This document shows positions 5,210 through 49,733 of a stretch of DNA of 64,000 nucleotides, piece after piece. The notes below the pieces were generated by a model. The model did not search any database, was not told where the DNA came from, and saw only the letters and a program-made list of their open reading frames with translations. Origin of the DNA: an uncultured bacterium (GTDB taxonomy: Bacteria; Caldisericota; Caldisericia; JAAYUI01); NCBI GenBank assembly GCA_965370295.1, contig CBDUSO010000005.1, forward strand, positions 7,580 to 71,579, written 5' to 3'. How positions within the stretch are numbered: the stretch's first letter is position 1; each line of letters opens with the position of its first letter. The translations under genes and the position numbers were made by a program.

Positions 5210-6352
5210 TTAGTTAAGTATGCTGTTGTTCTCAAAGCTGTTGAATGCAAACAGATTCACTTCGAAGTAGGATTTATCACCCTTCATTGACAGTTTCACT
5301 GGGTATGTTTCCAAGTTACCATCAATTATCACCCAGAGCGTGACATCAAATGTTTCGTTGTCGCTATCTGTATACTTTGTTGAGTATGAAGAGCAACTGT
5401 ATCCTGACTGGTTTCCGATTGAATCTCCAAGCTTCATACCTTCAGTGCTTGAGATTTCATATCCAATATCATCAAGAAGAGAAAGCGAATCTTTGATCAT
5501 GCTGTCCAGTTCACTCATTTCTGATGCGTCGACATTTGAATATTCGGAGCTTGATTCATCAAATTTGCGGTACATACTACCACTATATTTGTATTTTCCA
5601 GCGGTAGATTCCATTTCATATGAAAACGGCAACATAAGAACTGTGCCAGAGTATGAACTGGAAATCTCATTTGCAGAACTTCCAACTAATATTTCCATTT
5701 TGAAAGAAACTAGATTTTTAAGGGATGAAACCAGGCTTTGCCCCTCGCCAACAACAGGTTCGATTTCAAAGTATTCAATAGTTTCACCTTTGGAAAGATT
5801 GTATGCCCTGGTGTATAGCTTGTAGCCGTCAGCAGTAATTGTGACTTTTTTTAATCCCGGTCTGAGGTATTTGATTTCAAAATTCCCCTCTTCATCTGTT
5901 GTTGCTGTTTTCCCATCAATTTCAATAACTGCATTGCTGATGAGTTTTTTGTAATCATTCTGGGGTTTTTTATTTTCTTCCCTCTGTGCAACCAGTCCAT
6001 GAATCCATGTCTTAACGATTGGCTCAACGGGAAGATCGTACTCCAACACACCATCCTCAACGGTGATCGGTTTGATGAATCTCTTGTAGTCCAGCTTATC
6101 ATCATCTGTCTCGATGCGATATCTTCCTGGTTCTACAGATATTGAATAGTAGCCATTTTTATCTGGTGTGACCTCAATGGCAGGTTTTCTCATATTGCCA
6201 AGGTCCTTCAGTATAATGGTAATATCGGTTATAGGATCACCGTAAACATTATCGTACACCCTTCCTTCGATACCCTGTGAAACTCCACAGGCAAGCACAA
6301 TAACAGCTGTCAGCAGAACCACAACAGTCAACGCGAGCATTCTTTTCATCAT
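5210..6352 (-). CDS. Hypothetical lipoprotein with carboxypeptidase-regulatory-like (beta-sandwich) N-terminal domain
   Basis: Start chosen at MMKRM (GGAGG RBS). Signal peptide with lipobox LAC. GRVYD..GDPITD..PGRYRIE resembles the CarbopepD_reg fold. Ser/Tyr/Glu-rich C-half. Confidence 0.5.
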   Translation of the reverse strand: MMKRMLALTVVVLLTAVIVLACGVSQGIEGRVYDNVYGDPITDITIILKDLGNMRKPAIEVTPDKNGYYSISVEPGRYRIETDDDKLDYKRFIKPITVEDGVLEYDLPVEPIVKTWIHGLVAQREENKKPQNDYKKLISNAVIEIDGKTATTDEEGNFEIKYLRPGLKKVTITADGYKLYTRAYNLSKGETIEYFEIEPVVGEGQSLVSSLKNLVSFKMEILVGSSANEISSSYSGTVLMLPFSYEMESTAGKYKYSGSMYRKFDESSSEYSNVDASEMSELDSMIKDSLSLLDDIGYEISSTEGMKLGDSIGNQSGYSCSSYSTKYTDSDNETFDVTLWVIIDGNLETYPVKLSMKGDKSYFEVNLFAFNSFENNSILN

Positions 6353-6471
6353 ATCTAACCTCCAAGTATAAACCAATATTAGCAAGGGTTGTCTAACATT
6401 CAACAGTACAATACAAAACCTTGAGTTGTTTCATTGAATGACTAGTATTTGTCGTTGGCAAATATGTTAAT

Positions 6472-30507: not shown

Positions 30508-30543
30508 TAACTAATCTATAACGTAAAGGTAATTGTGTATAAT
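30508..30543 (+). promoter_or_regulatory. Candidate promoter for the peptide gene (TATAAT -10 at 30538-30543 preceded by TGTG; weak -35)
   Basis: Consensus -10 hexamer ~50 nt upstream of the peptide start codon. Confidence 0.3.
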
Positions 30544-30591
30544 AAAATGTCTGTTATGATGGAATCATCTAAATGAAAGGAGGCATGGGAA

Positions 30592-30783
30592 ATGCCATAT
30601 GAGCATGACGAGATGTCAAAGAAGGTAGCGTTGGATGAGGGTATGATCGACCCAAACGTAATGGAGTTGATCCCCCAAAAGAGGGTAGTCTGGATGGACA
30701 TGGAACACTTCGATCCAAATCAAATGGAGTTGTGTGGGTGCCCTAATTATCGATGTTGGCAGAACGGTTCCTTAATGCAGTAA
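30592..30783 (+). CDS. Candidate RiPP precursor peptide (63 aa): acidic leader with internal DPN(V/Q)MEL repeat and C-terminal core CGCPNYRCWQNGSLMQ
   Basis: Strong AAAGGAGG RBS 8 nt upstream of ATG. Small ORF immediately upstream of a radical SAM/SPASM enzyme. Three Cys plus Tyr/Trp/Asn clustered in the last 20 residues. Confidence 0.6.
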   Translation: MPYEHDEMSKKVALDEGMIDPNVMELIPQKRVVWMDMEHFDPNQMELCGCPNYRCWQNGSLMQ

Positions 30784-30809
30784 CCTTTTGTTGAGTTCAT
30801 TCTTATTGT

Positions 30810-30837
30810 GAGCGGGGAGCTGACTTGCTCCCCGCTC
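30810..30837 (+). promoter_or_regulatory. Perfect 11-bp stem hairpin (GAGCGGGGAGC TGACTT GCTCCCCGCTC) between precursor and maturase genes, no U-tract; probable partial terminator/RNA-stability element setting precursor:enzyme ratio
   Basis: Perfect GC-rich inverted repeat 27 nt after the peptide stop, 37 nt before the rSAM start. Confidence 0.5.
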
Positions 30838-30873
30838 ACCCTGTTGCAAATAGAGCGCGGTCGGAGGTATTGA

Positions 30874-32223
30874 ATGCGTTGGACAGAATATCTAGTTAGA
30901 AGTAATTTGGATAATGATAGAATCGTTCTTTTCTCAACTTTATCAGGTTCTGTGGTTGTGCTTGATAGTAAACTAATCCAAGCTATAGGTAACAAAAAAT
31001 TTCCGATGGAGACCCGTCTGGTAAATGATCTCAAGAAAACTGGATTTTTAGTTGAAGAAACATTTGGTGAAAAGGAATGGGCAACTGAACGTTTTCTACA
31101 TAAATTTAAAAATCCCGGAACTTTGGATATCGTTGTTGCTCCATCAATGACTTGTAACTTCGGTTGTCCGTATTGTTATGAGCGACGAGATAACCAAAAA
31201 CCTATGAGTGAATCAACTTTCCAGAATTTGTTGCAATTCATTGAAAAGAGAGCACAGACCTTAAAAGTAAAGAAAATTACGATGAGCTGCTATGGTGGAG
31301 AGCCACTATTGTACCCTGAGTATTTTGTAAGGATAAAGAAATTCATTGATAACAAATTCCCTGAGTTAAAACAATTCTGGGGAATAATAACAAATGGTTC
31401 ATTGATAAATGAAAGATTGGAATATCTACACTCTGAGATTGGACTTGACAGAGCACAAGTAACGCTCCATGGGAGTGAAGAATTCCATAATAAAGAGAGA
31501 CCATACTCTGATGGAAGTGCTTCCTACCAAGAAGTAGTCAATGGAATAAAAAAAGCAGTAAATCTTGGAATCAAAAACATTGAGATAAGAGTGAACGTTG
31601 ATAAGGAAAATGCAAACTCAATGGAGAAATTGCTTTCTGACCTCACCAGGCAAGGACTGGCAAACAAGAAAAATTTGCGTGTATATCCATATCCGATTAC
31701 CAAAATGACTGAGAATTCTGCTAAGTATGAAGTTGCTTGTATTCAGCAACACGATTATTTTGATAAACTCAGAGATTGGACGAAGATGATCACAGAAAAA
31801 GGTTTTGGTGGTTCTAATATTAAAAATTATTTTCGTTATTTGATTGCACCAATGTTATGTGGATCATATTCCAGAGGATTTTATGCAATAGGACCAAGGG
31901 GTGAAATTAATCCCTGCTGGGAGCACATCAACGAAACAAAATTCTTCGTTGGGAACGTAAACAATAATCCGACAATAGACCCAGAAAAAGAAAAGTGGTG
32001 GTTGGAAGGCGGTAGAAATAAGATACTTGACTGTGCCAAAAAGGATTGTGTCCTACTTCCGATATGTGGTGGGGGCTGTGCAGCACAGGCGATACATGAA
32101 ACCGGAGATATTTCTGGTAGATCATGCTTTAGAATGGTTGAAGATACTAAAAGATTCTTGAAACTCTATGCTGAATATGCAGAAAATACTGGAAATGTAA
32201 GAGAGGTTGATTACTCCAGATAA
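30874..32223 (+). CDS. Radical SAM enzyme with C-terminal SPASM domain (peptide-modifying maturase family; ~85-aa N-terminal extension possibly an RRE-type peptide-binding domain)
   Basis: CNFGCPYC (CxxxCxxC) at ~residue 95. C-terminal auxiliary-cluster cysteines: C...C...C-x2-C-x5-C-GGGC (SPASM pattern). GGAGG RBS. Confidence 0.85.
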   Translation: MRWTEYLVRSNLDNDRIVLFSTLSGSVVVLDSKLIQAIGNKKFPMETRLVNDLKKTGFLVEETFGEKEWATERFLHKFKNPGTLDIVVAPSMTCNFGCPYCYERRDNQKPMSESTFQNLLQFIEKRAQTLKVKKITMSCYGGEPLLYPEYFVRIKKFIDNKFPELKQFWGIITNGSLINERLEYLHSEIGLDRAQVTLHGSEEFHNKERPYSDGSASYQEVVNGIKKAVNLGIKNIEIRVNVDKENANSMEKLLSDLTRQGLANKKNLRVYPYPITKMTENSAKYEVACIQQHDYFDKLRDWTKMITEKGFGGSNIKNYFRYLIAPMLCGSYSRGFYAIGPRGEINPCWEHINETKFFVGNVNNNPTIDPEKEKWWLEGGRNKILDCAKKDCVLLPICGGGCAAQAIHETGDISGRSCFRMVEDTKRFLKLYAEYAENTGNVREVDYSR

Positions 32224-32231
32224 GTGTCAAG

Positions 32232-32585
32232 CTAGTCAGCGGGATAACCAATTTCAACAAGTTTTGTCTTGACGTCGTCAAGGGTTGTTTTTCTTTTATT
32301 GAAATCAACTGCAACAGTTTTTTTGTCGACATCAACGACAACTGATTCAATCCCGTCCATCTCGTAGATTGCTTTTTTTACCTTGTTTGCACAGTTCATG
32401 CACATGATTGAACTACAAGCTAATTCTGCTCTCATCTCGTCCTCCGGAGGAAAGCCTGCAATAGACATCTCATGTTCGATTCTCGTTAGAGACACTTGAG
32501 ACTCGTCAAAGTCCATCTCAAATGCACCGAAGAGAAGTTTTGAAACTCTGTTTATACCTTGTAAGAATCCGACCGATTCTTGCAC
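32232..32585 (-). CDS. Heavy-metal-associated (HMA) domain protein, CopZ-like ferredoxin fold with ~50-aa N-terminal extension (true start may be internal at MRAEL, ~32435)
   Basis: SIMCMNCANKVKKAI...VVVDVDKKTVAVDF matches the HMA M/C-x-C-x2-C metal-binding loop and fold. Confidence 0.65.
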   Translation of the reverse strand: MQESVGFLQGINRVSKLLFGAFEMDFDESQVSLTRIEHEMSIAGFPPEDEMRAELACSSIMCMNCANKVKKAIYEMDGIESVVVDVDKKTVAVDFNKRKTTLDDVKTKLVEIGYPAD

Positions 32586-32613: not shown

Positions 32614-33291
32614 CTACGATTTTTGAGTGTTACTTTCAAATCTTTTCCTCCAGGGAATTAGTGTTTCTACAGATTGAACAACTGAAAAACAAATTATTGA
32701 ATACCAGATAATAAACAATGGTTGAACGATGATGCGTGTTGTGAAGAGAGCCATGAACGGTATATGAAGTAGCCCGGTGAGTCCCCAGGTTACAAATATG
32801 AAACCAATCGTTTTTGATACAACCACAGCGACAACAATTTGAATCAATTTTGTGGTTCTGCTTGAGTCCCACCTCTTCATCATTATCAAGCCAGCAACAA
32901 ATCCATACATCACTTGAGCTGTGAAGATGAGTGGATTCCAAGGAAGACCTGTTGGATTCCAAAACCAGAAACCAATCAAATCTGAAAGTCCACCAACTAG
33001 AGCTCCACCAATTGGTCCAAGAATCATACCAGAAATCATGATTATTGCGGGACCACCAGGATCAAATCGAAGTGACTGAATTGGGTAAAAGGTGAGTAAG
33101 CGGGTAACCGTCAAAGCCATTCCAGACATTATCCCAACCAATGAAATCCCGATTGGTGTGAACGGTCTCTTAAAAACTGTTCTCAATGTTTCTCGCATCT
33201 CTTTCCTCCGGTTCAATTCGTTACCAGACCAAGTGAAGCTATCACATGAAGTATTCAGAATCAACAATAATTGTGGAACTATTTCCGGCAC
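32614..33291 (-). CDS. Hypothetical polytopic membrane protein (possible small-substrate transporter component)
   Basis: 5-6 hydrophobic helices. Start probably internal (MRETLRTVF). No diagnostic motif. Confidence 0.35.
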   Translation of the reverse strand: MPEIVPQLLLILNTSCDSFTWSGNELNRRKEMRETLRTVFKRPFTPIGISLVGIMSGMALTVTRLLTFYPIQSLRFDPGGPAIIMISGMILGPIGGALVGGLSDLIGFWFWNPTGLPWNPLIFTAQVMYGFVAGLIMMKRWDSSRTTKLIQIVVAVVVSKTIGFIFVTWGLTGLLHIPFMALFTTRIIVQPLFIIWYSIICFSVVQSVETLIPWRKRFESNTQKS

Positions 33292-33913
33292 GAGTTATCG
33301 CAAGTGCATCAAGAAGGGTTATTCCCATTTTATGAAGAACACTTGCACAGCTATGAAGTGTGGAGGATGTTGTCATAATGTCGTCGATCAGCATGTAGTG
33401 AGTGTTTCTATTTATCTTTGCAAATGGATGTGGAGTAAAGGCATCCTTAACATTCTCTGCTCTATCTTCGAGATTTAGTTTGAACTGGGGGTCAGTGTTT
33501 TTTATTCTTTTGATTATTTTGCCACCATATTTCCAGCCAAGAAGTTTTGCAAGCCTTTTAGCAATCACGGCTGACTGGTTGAATCCACGAGTTCGGAGTC
33601 TGAACGGATGAATTGGGACTGGAATGAGTGTTCGTTCGCCAAGCCCTACAAGGTATGGGGCAGAGAGTTCTGCGAGTAAAATTCCAAATTCTTCATGACC
33701 TTCAAATTTCATTTTGTGGATGATCTCTCGGATTGCATCACCATATGGAAGGATCGTTAAAACATTAAACGGTCTTAGGGAGAATGTTTTTGGATGTGGT
33801 TCGAGCTGGGATAAACAATCGTTGCAGAGTGGATGTTTGCCTGGTTTTTCACAAACAAGGCAGTGTGGTGGATAAAAATAATCAAGGATTTCACTAAGGA
33901 ATTTCATGCACAA
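33242..33913 (-). CDS. comF: ComF-family protein (double zinc-ribbon plus phosphoribosyltransferase domain)
   Basis: N-terminal CxxC...CxxC and PRTase motif YMLIDDIMTTSSTL. Confidence 0.7.
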   Translation of the reverse strand: MCMKFLSEILDYFYPPHCLVCEKPGKHPLCNDCLSQLEPHPKTFSLRPFNVLTILPYGDAIREIIHKMKFEGHEEFGILLAELSAPYLVGLGERTLIPVPIHPFRLRTRGFNQSAVIAKRLAKLLGWKYGGKIIKRIKNTDPQFKLNLEDRAENVKDAFTPHPFAKINRNTHYMLIDDIMTTSSTLHSCASVLHKMGITLLDALAITRAGNSSTIIVDSEYFM

Positions 33914-34946
33914 ATTCTTTTAACAGGTCGATTGAAATCTGGGCTTTTTTTTGAAGTTTTGGTAGATTTGTTTTCAACGTTTTTTTTATGGGTTCAAGAT
34001 TTTTGAGGAAATTATCTATCGTTTGTTCAAAATCTGAATTTTCTAAAAATTCTGAACAGCCAATTTCTTTCCCAATCATTCGAACTTTTTCGTGATAAAC
34101 GATTGGAAGAAATGGAACATTTGCAAGTGTTGATGCAATCATCGAATGAAGCCTCATGGGAATGGAAAAATCCGCCATCTGGAAAATCCCGAATCCATCG
34201 TTCCAGCTTATGGGACTTGCGAGTGATAAAACATTTTTTGGAGGAAGAAGTTTGGATAGTTCAGAGATTATCTCATCGTCACGACCCGGGAAAAAAGGAA
34301 CAAGAATCAGAGAACCACCAGTTTTCTCCAAAATATATTTGAGAATTTTGACAATCCATGGAATATCTAATTTGTATTCGCTTGAGGTTGCCGGTGAGAA
34401 AATGATTTTTGGTCCTGCCAGATTTTGAATCTTTTGTCGAATTATTTTTGATGGTTCATCGGGACTTAGAAGGAATGCAAGATCAGATGAAAGAGTTGGC
34501 TTTAAGCCAAGTTTCTCAGCTGTTGAAAAGGATTGCTCATCTCGAACGGTTAAAAATTTTGCTTTTTTCAAACCAAATTTCACAAGTTTTTTTGTGGAGA
34601 ATCTTGAAAATGAACCAATCTGCTGACCGATTGCACAGTAGGGCTTTGAGAGAAACCTTGAAAGAATTGGTCCAGCCAGGTGATACCAAGTTCCTTTTGC
34701 ACTCTTTCTTTCGTGGAGAAGACCTCCAGGACCAAGAATGAATCCATCACTTTTTTTAGTTACACGAAAAAGATTTTTTGGTGAACGGGATTCAAGAACT
34801 ATGTTTTGAGAATTTTGAACCGAAGAAGTTTCACCTGAGAAAATGTGAACCTCTTCATTTTTCAAATGTGGTAGTACTGCTGAAAGTAAGGCTTCATCAC
34901 CCACATTTCCAAATCCAAAGTATCCCCAGAGTGCAAGTTTTTTCAT
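33894..34946 (-). CDS. csaB: Polysaccharide pyruvyl transferase (CsaB-like)
   Basis: Start at MKKLALWGYFGFGNVGDEALL (canonical PS_pyruv_trans N-terminus); ATGA overlap with upstream tagA-like gene. Confidence 0.65.
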   Translation of the reverse strand: MKKLALWGYFGFGNVGDEALLSAVLPHLKNEEVHIFSGETSSVQNSQNIVLESRSPKNLFRVTKKSDGFILGPGGLLHERKSAKGTWYHLAGPILSRFLSKPYCAIGQQIGSFSRFSTKKLVKFGLKKAKFLTVRDEQSFSTAEKLGLKPTLSSDLAFLLSPDEPSKIIRQKIQNLAGPKIIFSPATSSEYKLDIPWIVKILKYILEKTGGSLILVPFFPGRDDEIISELSKLLPPKNVLSLASPISWNDGFGIFQMADFSIPMRLHSMIASTLANVPFLPIVYHEKVRMIGKEIGCSEFLENSDFEQTIDNFLKNLEPIKKTLKTNLPKLQKKAQISIDLLKEFVHEIP

Positions 34947-35665
34947 CGACCCGAAATCAAAAGCGGAATAAAAACTCCAAGACTTTTGAATAATCTTGGA
35001 ATCCTTACGAATGGTTCGACCGCTGCTCTCCACAACCACTCCAGACCAATTCTGCACATCCATGCGGGGGCTCTTTTTTTTGATCCAGCCCAAACATCAA
35101 ATACTCCGCCAACGCCGATAAAAAACTTGATATTTTTTAACTGACTTCTATTTTTTGAAATCCAAAGTTCTTGTTTGGGAATTCCGAGTGCAACGAGGAG
35201 AATCTCTGCATTGGATTTGTTTATTGACTCAATAAGAGTATCGTCATCAAATTCATATCCAGACATAAAACCAACCACTTCAATGTTTGGGAATTTATTT
35301 TCAACCGATTCTTTTGCTTTTTTTACAATTTCATCTTTTGCACCAAACAAAAAAACTTTTGTGCTAGGTTTTGAAGTTTTGAGAATGCTCTCGGTTAATT
35401 CAATTCCGGGGATTCGTTCGGTTACTTTTTTACCAAAACGTTTCAACAGAATAACCGAACCGATTCCATCAGGGACAAGAATATCAGCTTGCAAGCAGGT
35501 ATTTAGAAATTCAGAATCCCTCTTGCAGAGGGTAACAGATTCCAGGTTTGCAGTGATAATAAACTTCGATTTTTTATCAAACGAATTCCCCAAATCTGAC
35601 GTGAGTTGTGGAATGCTACCCAGATACCAGTTTGAAGAATTCAGGAGTTGCGAGCTACCACTCAT
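34943..35665 (-). CDS. tagA: WecG/TagA/CpsF-family glycosyltransferase (N-acetylmannosaminyltransferase-like)
   Basis: 240 aa. DILVPDGIG..., LFGA..., VGFMSGY and LLVALGIPKQE segments typical of Glyco_tran_WecB family. Confidence 0.75.
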   Translation of the reverse strand: MSGSSQLLNSSNWYLGSIPQLTSDLGNSFDKKSKFIITANLESVTLCKRDSEFLNTCLQADILVPDGIGSVILLKRFGKKVTERIPGIELTESILKTSKPSTKVFLFGAKDEIVKKAKESVENKFPNIEVVGFMSGYEFDDDTLIESINKSNAEILLVALGIPKQELWISKNRSQLKNIKFFIGVGGVFDVWAGSKKRAPAWMCRIGLEWLWRAAVEPFVRIPRLFKSLGVFIPLLISGR

Positions 35666-45012: not shown

Positions 45013-45095
45013 ACTTAGAATTCTAACCACATTAATCAATTGGTCAAGAATTTCCTTGACAGTTTGCGTTGAAAATATACACTCGCTTGAGTTGT

Positions 45096-45168
45096 GGGTC
45101 GTTAGCTCAGGTGGTAGAGCATCTGCCTTTTAAGCAGAGGGTCGCTGGTTCGAGTCCAGCACGACTCA
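45096..45168 (+). tRNA. tRNA-Lys (anticodon TTT), no encoded CCA
   Basis: GGGTCGT acceptor, D-arm GCTCAGGTGGTAGAGC, anticodon loop CTTTTAA, T-arm GGTTCGAGTCC. Confidence 0.85.
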
Positions 45169-45189
45169 AAAAGATGGTTTGAAAATTGT

Positions 45190-45264
45190 GGCCCCATGGT
45201 CTAACGGTTAGGATGACACTCTTTCAAGGTGTAGGCAGGAGTTCGATTCTCCTTGGGGCTACCA
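45190..45264 (+). tRNA. tRNA-Glu (anticodon TTC), CCA encoded
   Basis: GCCCCAT 5' end typical of tRNA-Glu, D-loop TCTAACGGTTAGG, anticodon loop CTTTCAA, T-arm GGTTCGATTCC, 3' GGGGCTACCA. Confidence 0.8.
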
Positions 45265-45443: not shown

Positions 45444-45590
45444 TCTGGTTGTTTCAGAAGTAATTCTGTACACGAGAGACGTGCTGATTGAGTTTATATG
45501 GGATTTATCCCCGTCCCGGTGTCTCGCCGGTGCGTTTAGTAAAAATCCTCCTTATGGTGGCTCGCCGAGTTGCCTGGAAAGGAAAAGGTG

Positions 45591-48500
45591 ATGAGAAAGG
45601 TTAAGCTATTATCCGTATTGCTTGCCGTAATTATGGTCTTACCCATGGCGGTAGGCCTCGGAATGAGGGTCACAGCAGATGATGGCCCACTGATGGAGTT
45701 ACTAGTTTACGTAACGAATCCTGGTGACAGAAATACTTTTGAGAGTATGAAACTTCCTGATCTCACACACTATGCCTCAGGTTCAATACTCACTGAAGCC
45801 ACTGAGAGTCAGATGCTCACTCTCGCCAATAAGAATATTGAGTATATTGTAATTGGACGAGTGGACTATCGTAACATCAATGGCGTTGTGATGACTGTTG
45901 AAGACAAAAAACTCAAGATGGTAGACGAGCCCAAGGGTTGGTACGCCAAGTATGCTGATGCAACCTATGAAGGGTACGATTTTGCATATTATCTTGTTGA
46001 TTTTGTTGGACCACTCAAAAGGGCATGGATTGATAAGGTCACAAATATGGGTGGAAATATCATGGATACATACCCATTGTTTGAACAGACCTACCTGGTC
46101 CGAATGGATAAGGATAAGATTGCAGAGCTGACTCAGCTTGATTTTGTTAGAGCCACCTGCATTCACAGTCCAATTCATAAGACTAATATTTGGCCAAAAA
46201 ATGAAGACAGCACCTACATGCGTTCTGTCAACATAACAATTGCAGGAAATCTTCCCTATGCCGAACTTGAGGAGATTTCAATTCTGCTTAGGAATTTTGG
46301 ATGCAAGACTTTCCTCCAGGCAAAAATTGATAAGTTTGATGCAAACGAATCTCCACCTCGTCCAGAGGGAATGTCGGATGAAGAGTATGGGCAGATGGTT
46401 GATGTTTGGAATGAAGAGCATCAAATGGAGGGGGAGTATTACAGCTCGGCAATCGATGATGAGGGTCATACTGTAAGAGATGCTGCCCAGATAATTATGT
46501 TTGGTACTGTTGGACCAACAAAACCACTTGGTATCGAATTGAAGGATGAGGGTCCATACGAACTTGCTTTTGTAAGAGTTGTATGCCCGATGAGGTCAAT
46601 TGCAGATATTGCCCTTATCCCTCAAGTATTAGACATTGATATGTTTGCAGCTCCAGAAGCTCAGAACGATCTTGCCAACTGGCAGATTGGTTCATATGCA
46701 GCGTGGGCCGCAAACGAATCAACAGCCATTGTAACTGATCCTACCGATGCATTACCGCATGACAGACTTGATCACTTCGGTCTTCATGGTGAGTCTTTTA
46801 TTCCAACCACATGTTTTCTCCCAACAGTTTCAGATCCAAATAACCATGATCATTACAGACAGATTGTTGCAATCGTTGGTACCGGTCTTGATACCGGTGA
46901 TGTAGGCTCAACATACAGTATATCAACCCAATACTCAACAAATCCAGTTGGAGACTTTGCAGGTCGTGTGGTTGACCATCTTGCTTATGTAAGGCCAACC
47001 AACACAAATTTCTACAATACAGATCGTGATACCAGATGGCGTTGGAACCCAACAAACGGTGGTGGAACTCGAGTACCGAGATGGAATTGGGTTACAACCA
47101 GTTATTATAATGGTGCACAGGAAAACCCCGGTTTTGTTGGTTCAAGAGGGTATCCCTGGATGGATTGGGATGGGCATGAAACACACGTAACAGGTTCTGG
47201 TTTTGGTGATGGCTATTGGTCAATTGGACATACCCCTGACGACAGTTGGGATCAAGATGGACGTGAGCCATACGATCCAGGTACTGTTGGTGTTATTGCT
47301 GATGGTGTTCCCGGAACACCACACATGCCTCCAAACCTTCCTGCTCCATACGGTGTTCAACCAGCCGGATCAACACCTGCTGGTAACTGGGATTATCGAG
47401 GAGTTGCATATCGTGCAGGACTCGTTGTACAGAGAGTAACTGCGAACAATTTCTCAAGAGCTCGTGATAGTGGTCAGGGACAGAACGGTAACACAAATTA
47501 TTATTTCTGGGGCTACGCAGGTAGACCAACATATCTTGGTCTCTATCAAGTAATCGCACCGGGTCCGGGATACTGGTATCTAAGAGCACAGGATTCCATG
47601 TTCGCAATCATGAATGATGCCTACCTCGTTGGTGCACGTATTCAGGTAAACGCATGGGTTGTCCCACATCGTGGACGTTCTGCTGGTTGGGCTGCTTATC
47701 CAAATTCTTCTGGAGACAGAGAAATCAGCTATGATCCTGCAGTACACAATGCAAACGAATACAACTTCTTCTGCACTCAGATGGACAGATTCACCTGGGA
47801 ACAGAAAGACATGCTCCTGGTTCAAGCTGGAACAACAAACACACGTTTAGCAGCACCATTTATCTACGACTATGAATGGTACAATTATACACCAAGAACA
47901 TTACCAGATGGTGCCAGATGGGAACGAGATCAGAGTCCGACATATTATAGTTCTCCATGGTGTTATACCACCCCACCAACACATGATTGGTTTATGGGGA
48001 TTCCTTATCCAGTACTAACCCCCAACGTCGGTGTTTATTATCCACCAATCGGTGATACCTCAACAAACCTTCCTTTGGAGTTTAACTACTATTATCATCA
48101 GACAGTAAATTCGACTCAACCACCGACAACTCAGCAGTCATCATGGCCGATGGGAAATGCAGATGGAAAGGCAGATTTTGGAACATCCGCACTTTCACCA
48201 GCAACCGCCAAAAACCCAATTACAGTTGGTGCTTCCGAGTCATATAGAAACATTCGGACTGTTCAAACAATAATGCCAACCAACCCAACTGGTGGACCAA
48301 CCCCTCCTGTTGCTACAAACAGGGGACCTTGGACATATGGAAATGCTTATTCAGAAGTGGATCATATCAGTTGGTTTCCAGCTGAACCTCTCTTCTCAGA
48401 TAATACTGCAAACTCAGATTCACCTTACACAACCGATAACAATGGTGGCACGCTTCATGAGAGTGATTGGTGGCTTGGTGAAACAAATGGTGGCACATTC

Positions 48501-49733
48501 GGATACAGCCAACCAATACCAATAACAACCGGTTACGGTCAAGTTGCTGCATTCTCAGGAAGAGGACCAACACCAGACCTCGATTACTCACATGGTGATC
48601 CAGAACCCTCAACTTGGGAAACAGCTGGAAGATACAAACCAGATATCGTTGCTCCTGGTACTCAGATCATGTCCTCCGCTTCATATCTTACACTTCAAGA
48701 GATAGGTTATTATGATCCAACCACAAATGGCAGACGTTATACCGGAAACAACTATAATGGTCAAAGACAAGTCCAAGCTGGTGAGCAGGGTGGACCATAC
48801 CTAGGCAGACACACATCAACTGATAGCCCAACCGGTCGTGCTGATGGCAATATGTATAAACACTATGCACTCATGGAAGGCACATCTTGTGCAACCGGTT
48901 TTGTTGCTGGTGCTGCTGCTGTCACAAGACAGTTCTATGAAAACAGGGGACTCTATATGTATCCAAATCCTTCCTCTGCTCTCATCAAAGCAACCTTAAT
49001 CCATGGAGCAAGAAACCTCGGTGGACAACCTGGTTATGATGCTCAGGCACCAGGTGCAGGATACGGTGCATGGGAATGGCTCTCAGCCAAACCAAGCTAT
49101 AGTCAAGGCTTCGGAAGACTCGACATAAAGAGATCTCTATACCCAGATCCACCAACCTACACACTTTTTGAAGATCATGATAGTGGTATCACAACCGGTG
49201 AAAAACATTATTTCTACTATGATGTCACCGACAACACTGTCCCATTTGAAGCAACTCTTACTTACATCGATATGCCAAAACTTCCAAACCCACAGGTAGC
49301 ACTCGCAAATGACCTTGATCTCATTGTCATTGACCCAGGCGGAACAGAGTATCATGGTAACATCTATACAACCGACCCACACATTGACCAGCACACAAAC
49401 AAGTATGAATCTTGGGGTCGTACATCGGCTGCAAACCCAGGTGGAACCAACTTCGACAGAAGAAATAATGTTGAACGCGTTGTTATCCCACCAAACCAGG
49501 TTAAAGAGGGTCGCTGGACAATATCAATATCCGGTGCTCGCGTAGAACAGTCTTCCACAAACATTCCACAGCTCTATGCGTTCCTTGTTTCTGGTGGAAA
49601 CCTTGCTGTTGCCGTTGCTCCAGCTCCAGAAGTTCCCGCACTCACACCAATGTCACTCCTCCTCGTTATCCTTGGACTCATAGGAGTCGGTGCATTCTTT
49701 ATTATCAGAAAAAAGGCAATGATTGTTGCATAA
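45591..49733 (+). CDS. Giant secreted subtilisin-like serine peptidase (S8 family) with large insertions and C-terminal PEP-CTERM-like sorting signal
   Basis: Signal peptide. Asp box VAIVGTGLDTGD, His box GHETHVTGSG, Ser box MEGTSCATGFVAGAAAV. C-terminus PEVPALTP + 21-aa hydrophobic helix + RKK (tripartite sorting signal). ATG at 45591 with GGAAAGGAAAAGG RBS; the long ORF starts at an upstream TTG. Confidence 0.75.
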   Translation: MRKVKLLSVLLAVIMVLPMAVGLGMRVTADDGPLMELLVYVTNPGDRNTFESMKLPDLTHYASGSILTEATESQMLTLANKNIEYIVIGRVDYRNINGVVMTVEDKKLKMVDEPKGWYAKYADATYEGYDFAYYLVDFVGPLKRAWIDKVTNMGGNIMDTYPLFEQTYLVRMDKDKIAELTQLDFVRATCIHSPIHKTNIWPKNEDSTYMRSVNITIAGNLPYAELEEISILLRNFGCKTFLQAKIDKFDANESPPRPEGMSDEEYGQMVDVWNEEHQMEGEYYSSAIDDEGHTVRDAAQIIMFGTVGPTKPLGIELKDEGPYELAFVRVVCPMRSIADIALIPQVLDIDMFAAPEAQNDLANWQIGSYAAWAANESTAIVTDPTDALPHDRLDHFGLHGESFIPTTCFLPTVSDPNNHDHYRQIVAIVGTGLDTGDVGSTYSISTQYSTNPVGDFAGRVVDHLAYVRPTNTNFYNTDRDTRWRWNPTNGGGTRVPRWNWVTTSYYNGAQENPGFVGSRGYPWMDWDGHETHVTGSGFGDGYWSIGHTPDDSWDQDGREPYDPGTVGVIADGVPGTPHMPPNLPAPYGVQPAGSTPAGNWDYRGVAYRAGLVVQRVTANNFSRARDSGQGQNGNTNYYFWGYAGRPTYLGLYQVIAPGPGYWYLRAQDSMFAIMNDAYLVGARIQVNAWVVPHRGRSAGWAAYPNSSGDREISYDPAVHNANEYNFFCTQMDRFTWEQKDMLLVQAGTTNTRLAAPFIYDYEWYNYTPRTLPDGARWERDQSPTYYSSPWCYTTPPTHDWFMGIPYPVLTPNVGVYYPPIGDTSTNLPLEFNYYYHQTVNSTQPPTTQQSSWPMGNADGKADFGTSALSPATAKNPITVGASESYRNIRTVQTIMPTNPTGGPTPPVATNRGPWTYGNAYSEVDHISWFPAEPLFSDNTANSDSPYTTDNNGGTLHESDWWLGETNGGTFGYSQPIPITTGYGQVAAFSGRGPTPDLDYSHGDPEPSTWETAGRYKPDIVAPGTQIMSSASYLTLQEIGYYDPTTNGRRYTGNNYNGQRQVQAGEQGGPYLGRHTSTDSPTGRADGNMYKHYALMEGTSCATGFVAGAAAVTRQFYENRGLYMYPNPSSALIKATLIHGARNLGGQPGYDAQAPGAGYGAWEWLSAKPSYSQGFGRLDIKRSLYPDPPTYTLFEDHDSGITTGEKHYFYYDVTDNTVPFEATLTYIDMPKLPNPQVALANDLDLIVIDPGGTEYHGNIYTTDPHIDQHTNKYESWGRTSAANPGGTNFDRRNNVERVVIPPNQVKEGRWTISISGARVEQSSTNIPQLYAFLVSGGNLAVAVAPAPEVPALTPMSLLLVILGLIGVGAFFIIRKKAMIVA

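Follow-up and report, generated by a model that had tools for sequence, protein, structure and literature searches.

Whether a short open reading frame (ORF) followed by a radical S-adenosylmethionine (radical SAM, rSAM) enzyme gene encodes the precursor of a modified peptide, and what the enzyme would do to that precursor, is the question raised by a locus in a 64-kb stretch of DNA from an uncultured member of the Caldisericota (contig CBDUSO010000005.1; the whole stretch is referred to below as the window). A preliminary description of the window had proposed a cluster for a ribosomally made peptide with post-translational modifications (RiPP), consisting of a 63-amino-acid peptide and an rSAM/SPASM maturase. 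The ORF list places both ORFs where that description had located them:

30592..30783, + strand: precursor peptide gene, 63 amino acids plus stop codon (ORF list, orthologue and substitution pattern)
30874..32223, + strand: rSAM/SPASM peptide maturase gene, 449 amino acids plus stop codon (ORF, family models, AlphaFold2 (AF2) model and Foldseek)

The two ORFs lie on the same strand, 90 nt apart, and the translation of the precursor gene is MPYEHDEMSKKVALDEGMIDPNVMELIPQKRVVWMDMEHFDPNQMELCGCPNYRCWQNGSLMQ. Together they form a real two-gene cassette of a Caldisericota chromosome, most likely for a cross-linked RiPP, in which the peptide family is uncatalogued and the design is familiar.

Conservation of the peptide gene and its linkage to the enzyme gene

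The window peptide was 71% identical to its orthologue in locus L001. Synonymous sites were saturated (proportion of synonymous differences, pS, 0.94), yet the nonsynonymous proportion (pN) was 0.20; the 63-amino-acid ORF is therefore a coding gene under purifying selection. The peptide matched no NCBIfam or Pfam family at E ≤ 1, including those for SCIFF, CefA, the Clo7bot peptide and the Nif11 and NHLP leaders. A search of 5.8 billion proteins yielded six clusters of similar peptides, and a peptide profile gave 11 matches among 1.84 billion representatives, including five further small peptides (P0128–P0131 and P0134) and two larger proteins. Profile matches P0127 and P0135 were discarded as spurious translations of repeats. 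Across the 1.8–5.8 billion proteins searched, the family comprised about a dozen distinct peptides.

In every locus with enough flanking DNA, one or more peptide genes stood immediately upstream of an rSAM gene of the same clade. This arrangement recurred in at least seven genomic contexts, which included the following loci:

L001: syntenic with the window; peptide upstream of rSAM
L002–L007, L017, L039, L100 and L101: common context, different from that of the window; peptide upstream of rSAM
L008–L010: peptide upstream of rSAM; type-B lineage (core types A and B are defined below)
L011–L015: three precursors upstream of rSAM
L096: peptide upstream of rSAM; the most distant type-A locus
L098: four precursors upstream of rSAM
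L099: three precursors; enzyme N-terminus at the contig end

Some loci thus held two to four precursor genes in tandem. A leader profile, scanned against 100 sequences (the window and L001–L099), was found in every Caldisericota-type locus, once in the window, and never in outgroup loci whose enzymes share 25–30% identity with that of the window. A metagenome scan with a narrower peptide alignment added two loci only. Because neighbouring genes differ between contexts, the conserved unit consists of the peptide and the enzyme only. The proposed order of precursor and maturase, the conservation and linkage of the peptide in other genomes, and the description of the locus as minimal were all borne out by these comparisons.

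The window was collinear with OY771555.1, a 2.23-Mb chromosome of a metagenome-assembled genome (MAG) named 'Caldisericia bacterium', over twelve consecutive genes in the same order. These genes were 50–90% identical, a range that includes the peptide (71%) and the enzyme (60%). Other named hosts were Caldisericales and Caldisericota MAGs, and all identifiable hosts belonged to the Caldisericota. Since flanking gene order is kept and the locus diverges like its housekeeping neighbours, these sequence comparisons indicate vertical inheritance of the cassette within its setting of housekeeping genes.

Domains, fold and closest relatives of the enzyme

Three regions were recognized in the 449-amino-acid enzyme, the first of which resembles a RiPP recognition element (RRE):

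30874..31110, + strand: N-terminal RRE-like domain, residues 1–79, three strands followed by three helices (AF2, Foldseek)
31153..31176, + strand: CxxxCxxC motif (C94, C98 and C101), which binds the SAM-cleaving [4Fe-4S] cluster (sequence; PF04055)
31858..32127, + strand: SPASM region with seven cysteines (invariant in 120 homologues; TIGR04085; aligned with the SPASM domain of CteB)

A Pfam scan assigned the enzyme to the radical SAM superfamily (PF04055, 67.7 bits, cut-off 29.5), with Fer4_12 as a further match, and the CxxxCxxC motif noted in the preliminary description was read at C94, C98 and C101. The C-terminal 130 residues scored 49 bits with the SPASM model TIGR04085 (cut-off 27). Seven cysteines in this region (C329, C348, C387, C392, C398, C402 and C418) were invariant across 120 homologues, in the auxiliary-cluster pattern C329...G343x4C348...C387x4C392x5C398x3C402...C418, and this motif aligned with the SPASM domain of CteB. 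A seven-Cys motif that serves two auxiliary [4Fe-4S] clusters characterizes the SPASM subfamily. The full SPASM cysteine pattern claimed earlier was thus present, except that the spacing given as CxxC should read Cx4C.

The AF2 model of the full-length enzyme, built on the 120 homologues, had a pLDDT of 94.3. Its best match among solved structures was CteB (5wgg/5why; E ~1e-18, TM score 0.71 over the full length), followed by TigE, anSME, ChlB and SuiB. CteB was also the best sequence match in the PDB when the family profile was used (E 2e-24). Six CteB residues (F112, F152, T186, S210, H363 and Q364), at catalytic-site proximity positions of PMC10288494, correspond in the alignment to Y102, Y140, I172, T197, W349 and E350 of the enzyme. 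The N-terminal extension, previously estimated at about 85 amino acids and proposed to be of RRE type, is predicted to fold as three strands (residues 7–11, 16–21 and 26–31) and three helices (32–39, 48–55 and 66–79), with a pLDDT of 89 when modelled alone and 94 within the full-length model. In Foldseek, the domain on its own matched RREs best, namely TbiB1, the TigE N-terminus (TM score 0.70, rmsd 3.1 Å), LynD, CteB and lasso B1. In the model, the domain has the RRE-type topology; leader binding itself is a prediction.

When the whole enzyme was compared with NCBIfam, 66 families matched and the best were all peptide maturases. TIGR04463 ('rSAM_vs_C_rich'; 199.5 bits, cut-off 525) and CefB (NF038107, 'Cys-every-fifth'; 190 bits, cut-off 600) were the top two and matched over nearly the full length; with the SPASM region by itself, CefB again ranked first. 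Further matches included the Clo7bot (TIGR04334; 162.1 bits, cut-off 600), geopeptide (TIGR04280; 157.3 bits, cut-off 400), FlmE/OhkG (NF052473; 145.6 bits, cut-off 500), PapB (NF047865; 114.6 bits, cut-off 340) and SCIFF-maturase (TIGR03974; 74.6 bits, cut-off 425) families. The cyclophane-forming enzymes YhhB and AmcB scored 49–54 bits. The enzyme is a relative of TIGR04463, CefB, Clo7bot, geopeptide, FlmE/OhkG, PapB and SCIFF maturases, not a member of any of them; it is an RRE-rSAM-SPASM peptide maturase outside every curated equivalog family. A cluster look-up returned no names for the window proteins. All inspected outgroup enzymes at 25–30% identity were encoded downstream of Cys-rich peptides, in Clo7bot arrays of Clostridium and Paraclostridium and in loci from Collinsella, Saccharibacteria, Blautia and Bacteroidales.

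These scores bear on a reading in which the two ORFs are functionally unrelated and the enzyme is a metabolic rSAM protein, or one of the anSME, QhpD, PqqE or MftC type, with its substrate encoded elsewhere. Housekeeping genes do surround the locus, no protease, transporter or immunity gene adjoins it, and anSME is a good structural match, all of which would suit such a reading. Nevertheless, anSME and QhpD scored only 68.6 and 58.3 bits (cut-offs 349.45 and 453), which places the enzyme in neither family, and PqqE and MftC were absent from the top 25 NCBIfam matches. The neighbourhood contained no sulfatase, qhp, pqq or mft (mycofactocin) genes, as the preliminary description had remarked for sulfatase, PQQ and mycofactocin functions. 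Where enough flanking DNA was present, the seven or more contexts yielded no case of the peptide apart from this rSAM clade, and the enzyme carries a predicted RRE-like peptide-binding domain. A functionally unrelated pair is practically excluded, and the two genes are treated below as precursor and maturase.

Leader and core of the precursor peptide

Alignment of the family divided the peptide into two parts, with the predicted boundary placed at residue 47 because conservation stops there:

30592..30732, + strand: predicted leader, residues 1–47 (strong conservation in alignments)
30733..30780, + strand: predicted core, residues 48–63, CGCPNYRCWQNGSLMQ (variable C-terminal part)

The leader contains the blocks MPYxHN..SIKV, (I/V)DPxxMExIP, (R/K)VVW(M/I)D and FDPNxME, and W34 and D36 were invariant in an alignment of 17 peptides. 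The leader holds two copies of an hDPxxME motif, which suggests an internal duplication. Two types can be distinguished among the variable cores, which are formed by the C-terminal 16–25 residues. Type A, represented by the window, L001, L096 and the L002 group, has the motif (C)-x-C-x-x-Y-R-C-W-x-N-G/N, in which Y53, R54, W56 and N58 are strictly conserved; P0134 also retains this motif, although its overall identity is just 39%. Type B (L008, L011, L098 and L099) has three cysteines and usually occurs as several different tandem precursors. C55 is the only residue invariant in all cores and C50 is nearly invariant. A Cys-to-Cys spacing of five residues dominated (24 of 48 spacings), with T, N or Y at +3 and Y or F at +4 from Cys; this gives C-x-x-(T/N)-(Y/F) as the recurring unit, which in the window core reads C50-PNYR-C55-WQNG. 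The earlier characterization of the peptide as Cys- and aromatic-rich applies to its C-terminal 16 residues and not to all 63.

RiPP precursors typically join a conserved leader to a variable core. Purifying selection, this division into leader and core, and linkage to a maturase gene together identify the peptide as a RiPP precursor. As a separate observation, the 'Cys every fifth' arrangement of the cores is reminiscent of the name given to CefB, the family ranked second for the enzyme. In L011, a third, divergent precursor of 66 amino acids (504–704; MEPDENKVKV...VVGCSKTYCVATYCQGGFTEIA) lies 250 nt upstream of two 69-amino-acid precursors and lacks the N-terminal MPYxHN block.

Leader-like modules also occurred in the two larger proteins, P0132 (228 amino acids; L102, 6522–7208) and P0133 (400 amino acids; L097, 2375–3577). 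Each begins with two consecutive modules of this kind, hDPxxME included, and then enters a DxYG-repeat region with a weak likeness to bactofilins (PF04519, 20 bits, below the cut-off). No rSAM gene was found near either of them. Since the module is doubled at the N-terminus of these proteins away from rSAM genes, an autonomous protein module may have been recruited as the RiPP leader. Such an origin has been proposed for the Nif11 and NHLP leaders.

Expression signals

Signals for transcription and translation were read from the DNA around the two genes:

30538..30543, + strand: TATAAT, putative -10 element of the peptide gene (sequence reading)
30576..30583, + strand: Shine-Dalgarno sequence AAAGGAGG, 8 nt before the peptide ATG (sequence reading)
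30808..30839, + strand: intercistronic hairpin with a perfect 13-bp G+C-rich stem, a 6-nt loop and no T-tract (folding z about -4)
30863..30867, + strand: Shine-Dalgarno sequence GGAGG, 6 nt before the rSAM ATG (sequence reading)

The window contains five copies of AAAGGAGG, and three of the four others directly precede the starts of long ORFs, which identifies this sequence as a strong ribosome-binding site of this genome, in agreement with the strong site and 8-nt spacing reported before. The TATAAT hexamer that had been put forward as a plausible -10 element was present, but no acceptable -35 element was found upstream of it and a sigma-70 promoter scan did not report it.

In four of five lineages (window, L002, L096 and L011), a hairpin separated the rSAM gene from the last of the precursor genes. 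The hairpin sequences were unrelated between lineages, had folding z-scores from -3.9 to -4.7, and were followed by U-rich tails in two cases. Intercistronic hairpins are known in other peptide operons, for example sboA-albA. In the window, the hairpin probably shifts transcript levels in favour of the precursor relative to the enzyme.

The peptide and rSAM ORFs share a reading frame in the window (starts at 30592 and 30874), L001 (10001 and 10220) and L002 (3889 and 4156), with start-to-start distances of 282, 219 and 267 nt, respectively; in L008 and L096 they are not in frame. The shared frame in three lineages is probably a coincidence.

Proposed modification of the core

The following route from precursor to product is proposed. 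The RRE-like domain of the enzyme would bind the 47-residue leader and thereby bring the short, Cys-containing core CGCPNYRCWQNGSLMQ to the radical SAM active site. Cleavage of SAM at the CxxxCxxC cluster would generate a 5'-deoxyadenosyl radical, which would take a hydrogen from an acceptor residue of the core. The resulting carbon radical would be captured by a Cys thiolate, probably held at an auxiliary SPASM cluster as in CteB, to close a thioether ring within the peptide. C50 and C55 would be the most likely donors, and the residues at +3 after each Cys the most likely acceptors; in the family these are Thr, Asn or Tyr, and the one that follows C55 in the window is N58. In CteB, the leader forms a strand against the β3/α3 region of the RRE and Cys binds the open site of an auxiliary cluster; thioethers that link Cys with Thr, Asn or Asp have also been described (PMC8326336).

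Thioether formation is favoured because Cys alone is shared by all cores, because the best-scoring relatives of the enzyme are named for Cys-rich targets or are known thioether makers, and because every inspected outgroup enzyme lies downstream of Cys-rich peptides. As most cores have 6–9 residues after the last Cys, short local rings are more plausible than the hairpins of sactipeptides. A Cys(i)-to-Thr/Asn(i+3) linkage would fit the positional statistics and would resemble the Cys-Thr link of CteA and the Asn-Cys link of NxxcA. The conserved core cysteines and the relatives of the enzyme lend indirect support to the sactipeptide/ranthipeptide class suggested in the preliminary description, in which Cys sulfur is joined to an α-carbon (sacti) or to a β- or γ-carbon (ranthi). 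On this sequence evidence the most likely product, by a modest preference, is a thioether-cross-linked peptide of this kind. The complete proposal, in which an RRE-bound leader, radical chemistry and a thioether-ringed core are combined, is held with a similarly guarded leaning in its favour.

Several results weigh against this proposal. None of the closest NCBIfam families reaches half its cut-off, so that transfer of function by the equivalog rule is impossible. No described chemistry for TIGR04463, CefB, Clo7bot or geopeptide enzymes was found in the searchable literature, and a literature search on OhkG and FlmE likewise gave nothing on their chemistry. According to PMC10288494, full-length similarity mispredicts chemistry in this superfamily. 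The Pfam SPASM model PF13186 stayed below threshold (14.4 bits, cut-off 21.5); the Foldseek E-values of the isolated RRE-like domain were weak (about 0.01; TbiB1 TM score 0.37–0.40), and the Pfam scan gave no PqqD/RRE match in the enzyme. The intercistronic hairpin was absent from L001. No leader peptidase or exporter was found, so that release of a mature core is hypothetical. Finally, an aromatic C-C cross-link would likewise be compatible with the strict conservation of Y53, R54, W56 and N58 in type-A cores.

That last point leads to an alternative in which the same precursor and maturase carry out a modification other than thioether formation, while the cysteines form disulfides or bind metal. 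The reaction could be a cyclophane-type C-C link that joins Trp56 or Tyr53 with a neighbouring side chain (for example within W56-Q57-N58), a Tyr/Arg or Trp/Arg link such as those made by RrrB or WprB, an epimerization or another radical reaction. Presence of Y53, R54, W56 and N58 in every type-A core, P0134 included, and of an aromatic residue before most cysteines of type-B cores is in line with it. So are the good structural matches to SuiB, TigE and ChlB, which are not thioether synthases, the occurrence of YhhB and AmcB among the HMM matches, and the superfamily-wide mispredictions noted above. On the other hand, W-x-N and Y-R are missing from type-B cores that share the enzyme clade and the leader, so that only Cys is universal; YhhB and AmcB scored 49–54 bits against 115–200 bits for maturases of Cys-rich peptides, and all outgroup loci encode Cys-rich precursors. 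A non-thioether modification is accordingly considered possible but rather unlikely, and thioether formation is retained as the preferred reading.

The preliminary description had also raised the possibility of a new class. Nothing found points to chemistry outside the sactipeptide/ranthipeptide kind, and this suggestion was not sustained. A joint reading is considered improbable; in it, the cassette would found a RiPP class confined to the Caldisericota, the ring chemistry would be new, the unusually long, internally duplicated leader would be a recruited module, and the product would have a conserved physiological instead of an antibiotic function. Its undescribed ring could be, for example, a series of four-residue Cys(i)-Thr/Asn(i+3) rings on the 'Cys every fifth' scaffold, or a Cys/aromatic link.

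Possible biological role

No protease, exporter (transporter) or immunity gene was conserved across the contexts. Together with vertical inheritance, this makes a physiological or signalling role, by analogy with SCIFF, seem at least as likely as an antibiotic role. The wide conservation of SCIFF has likewise been used as an argument against an antibiotic function (PMC8326336).

An exported antimicrobial, comparable to the bacteriocin-like sactibiotics and compatible with either chemistry, would require that protease, exporter and immunity proteins be encoded elsewhere. The strong variation of cores between lineages speaks for such a product, as do the two to four different tandem precursors of type-B loci, which are typical of diversifying bioactive peptides, and the α/β-hydrolase/peptidase S9-like gene that follows the rSAM gene on the same strand in L008–L010. 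Against it stand the missing conserved export, protease and immunity genes and the type-A core, which differs very little between lineages even though their enzymes share only 37–60% identity. The locus is moreover syntenic and diverges like its housekeeping neighbours, as in the argument made for SCIFF (PMC8326336). An antimicrobial product is therefore a tentative option of rather low probability, and a SCIFF-like role is kept as at least its equal.

The hydrolase genes of L008 (2635–3822) and L009 (2632–3819) lie directly after the rSAM gene and their products match BD-FAE, Abhydrolase_3 and Peptidase_S9. Confined to this type-B lineage, the encoded protein is a possible leader peptidase.

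Comparison with known systems

The SCIFF system CteA-CteB (TIGR03973/TIGR03974; 5WGG, 5WHY) shares with the present locus the two-gene cassette of a precursor and an rSAM/SPASM enzyme with a fused N-terminal RRE, the lack of a dedicated protease or exporter, and vertical inheritance within a lineage. CteB is the best match among solved structures by both sequence and fold, and its seven-Cys SPASM domain aligns. However, the enzyme is only 18% identical to CteB and remains far below the cut-off of the SCIFF-maturase model, its SPASM spacing is Cx4Cx5Cx3C instead of Cx2Cx5Cx3C, and the window peptide does not match the SCIFF model. The long conserved leader of 47 amino acids and the variable core found here are the opposite of the SCIFF arrangement.

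CefA/CefB and TIGR04463 provide the top two enzyme matches, and the cores described here also have Cys at every fifth residue; scores nevertheless amount to about one-third of the cut-offs and the peptide matches no NCBIfam precursor model. The Clo7bot systems of Clostridium and Paraclostridium have a related enzyme (26–27% identity) and tandem Cys-rich precursors directly upstream of the rSAM gene, as in type-B loci. Their leaders, in contrast, are short (about 12–15 amino acids, MKYIIKP...) and unrelated, their cores contain 4–8 Cys, and the leader profile of the present family finds nothing in Clo7bot loci.

Short-ring β-thioether ranthipeptides, made by PapB (freyrasin) and by NxxcB from NxxcA, are likewise based on short motifs that pair Cys with a nearby polar acceptor, and the window core holds both N52-Y-R-C55 (NxxC) and C55-W-Q-N58. 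The NxxC motif is not conserved in the family, since N52 is replaced by Ser in P0134. The PapB match is below its cut-off and lacks the first ~90 residues, and CxxxD repeats are absent here. Three-residue cyclophanes (triceptides; YhhB, AmcB, XncB) are also made by rSAM/SPASM enzymes, and W56-Q57-N58 fits the aromatic-x-polar pattern that characterizes this class. Low YhhB/AmcB scores, and the absence of W-x-N from type-B cores with the same leader and enzyme clade, set the present system apart from them.

What is new here is a peptide family without a curated model and an enzyme outside the cut-offs of its relatives; the precursor-maturase cassette type was already known. Because precursor-plus-rSAM/SPASM cassettes number in the thousands, no concept is changed by this one. 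The literature searched contained no description of a Caldisericota RiPP, and to our knowledge the phylum has essentially one cultured species. As a clean, minimal two-gene target for heterologous expression, the cassette could allow a reaction to be assigned to the rSAM/SPASM branch that includes TIGR04463, CefB, Clo7bot, geopeptide and the Collinsella and Clostridium relatives. It contributes a leader of a new type, as well as a second vertically inherited cassette of the SCIFF-like kind that lacks exporter and protease, and thereby bears on the question of what 'housekeeping' RiPPs do.

Genomic surroundings and further observations

In the window, an MraY-like transferase gene lies upstream of the cassette and a gene for a heavy-metal-associated (HMA) protein lies downstream in convergent orientation. 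The latter (32232–32585, - strand) encodes an HMA domain with a CMNC motif and ends 8 nt from the rSAM gene; in L001, the 3' end of the HMA gene overlaps the rSAM stop codon. As a functional partner of the cassette it was rejected, since it occurred in the two syntenic genomes alone and was missing from the other contexts; by this distribution, it is probably unrelated to the cassette.

OY771555.1 carries a paralogous cassette, L098 (6001–8235; at ~0.95 Mb), with four different tandem type-B precursors followed by the 454-amino-acid rSAM protein P0005. One of these precursors (6219–6428, GTG start) had not previously been called as a gene. P0005, which is 34% identical to the window enzyme, was rejected as its syntenic orthologue; the true orthologue is 60% identical. 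No second cassette of the L098 kind was found in the 64-kb window.

L096 (51–6983) contains its cassette within a same-strand run of genes without Pfam matches, after a gene for a SLATT_4 protein. These genes, which encode 537, 192 and 85 amino acids upstream of the cassette and 580 amino acids downstream, are possible lineage-specific partners.

Elsewhere in the window, mechanically called ORFs on the - strand overlap by 150 nt (33894–35093 and 34943–35665) and by 50 nt (32614–33291 and 33242–33913). They are 33–48 amino acids longer than the called orthologues in L001, and their true starts are probably further downstream. Genes for tRNA-Lys and tRNA-Glu (45095–45264) precede the longest ORF of the window, which encodes 1387 amino acids (45570–49733, + strand).

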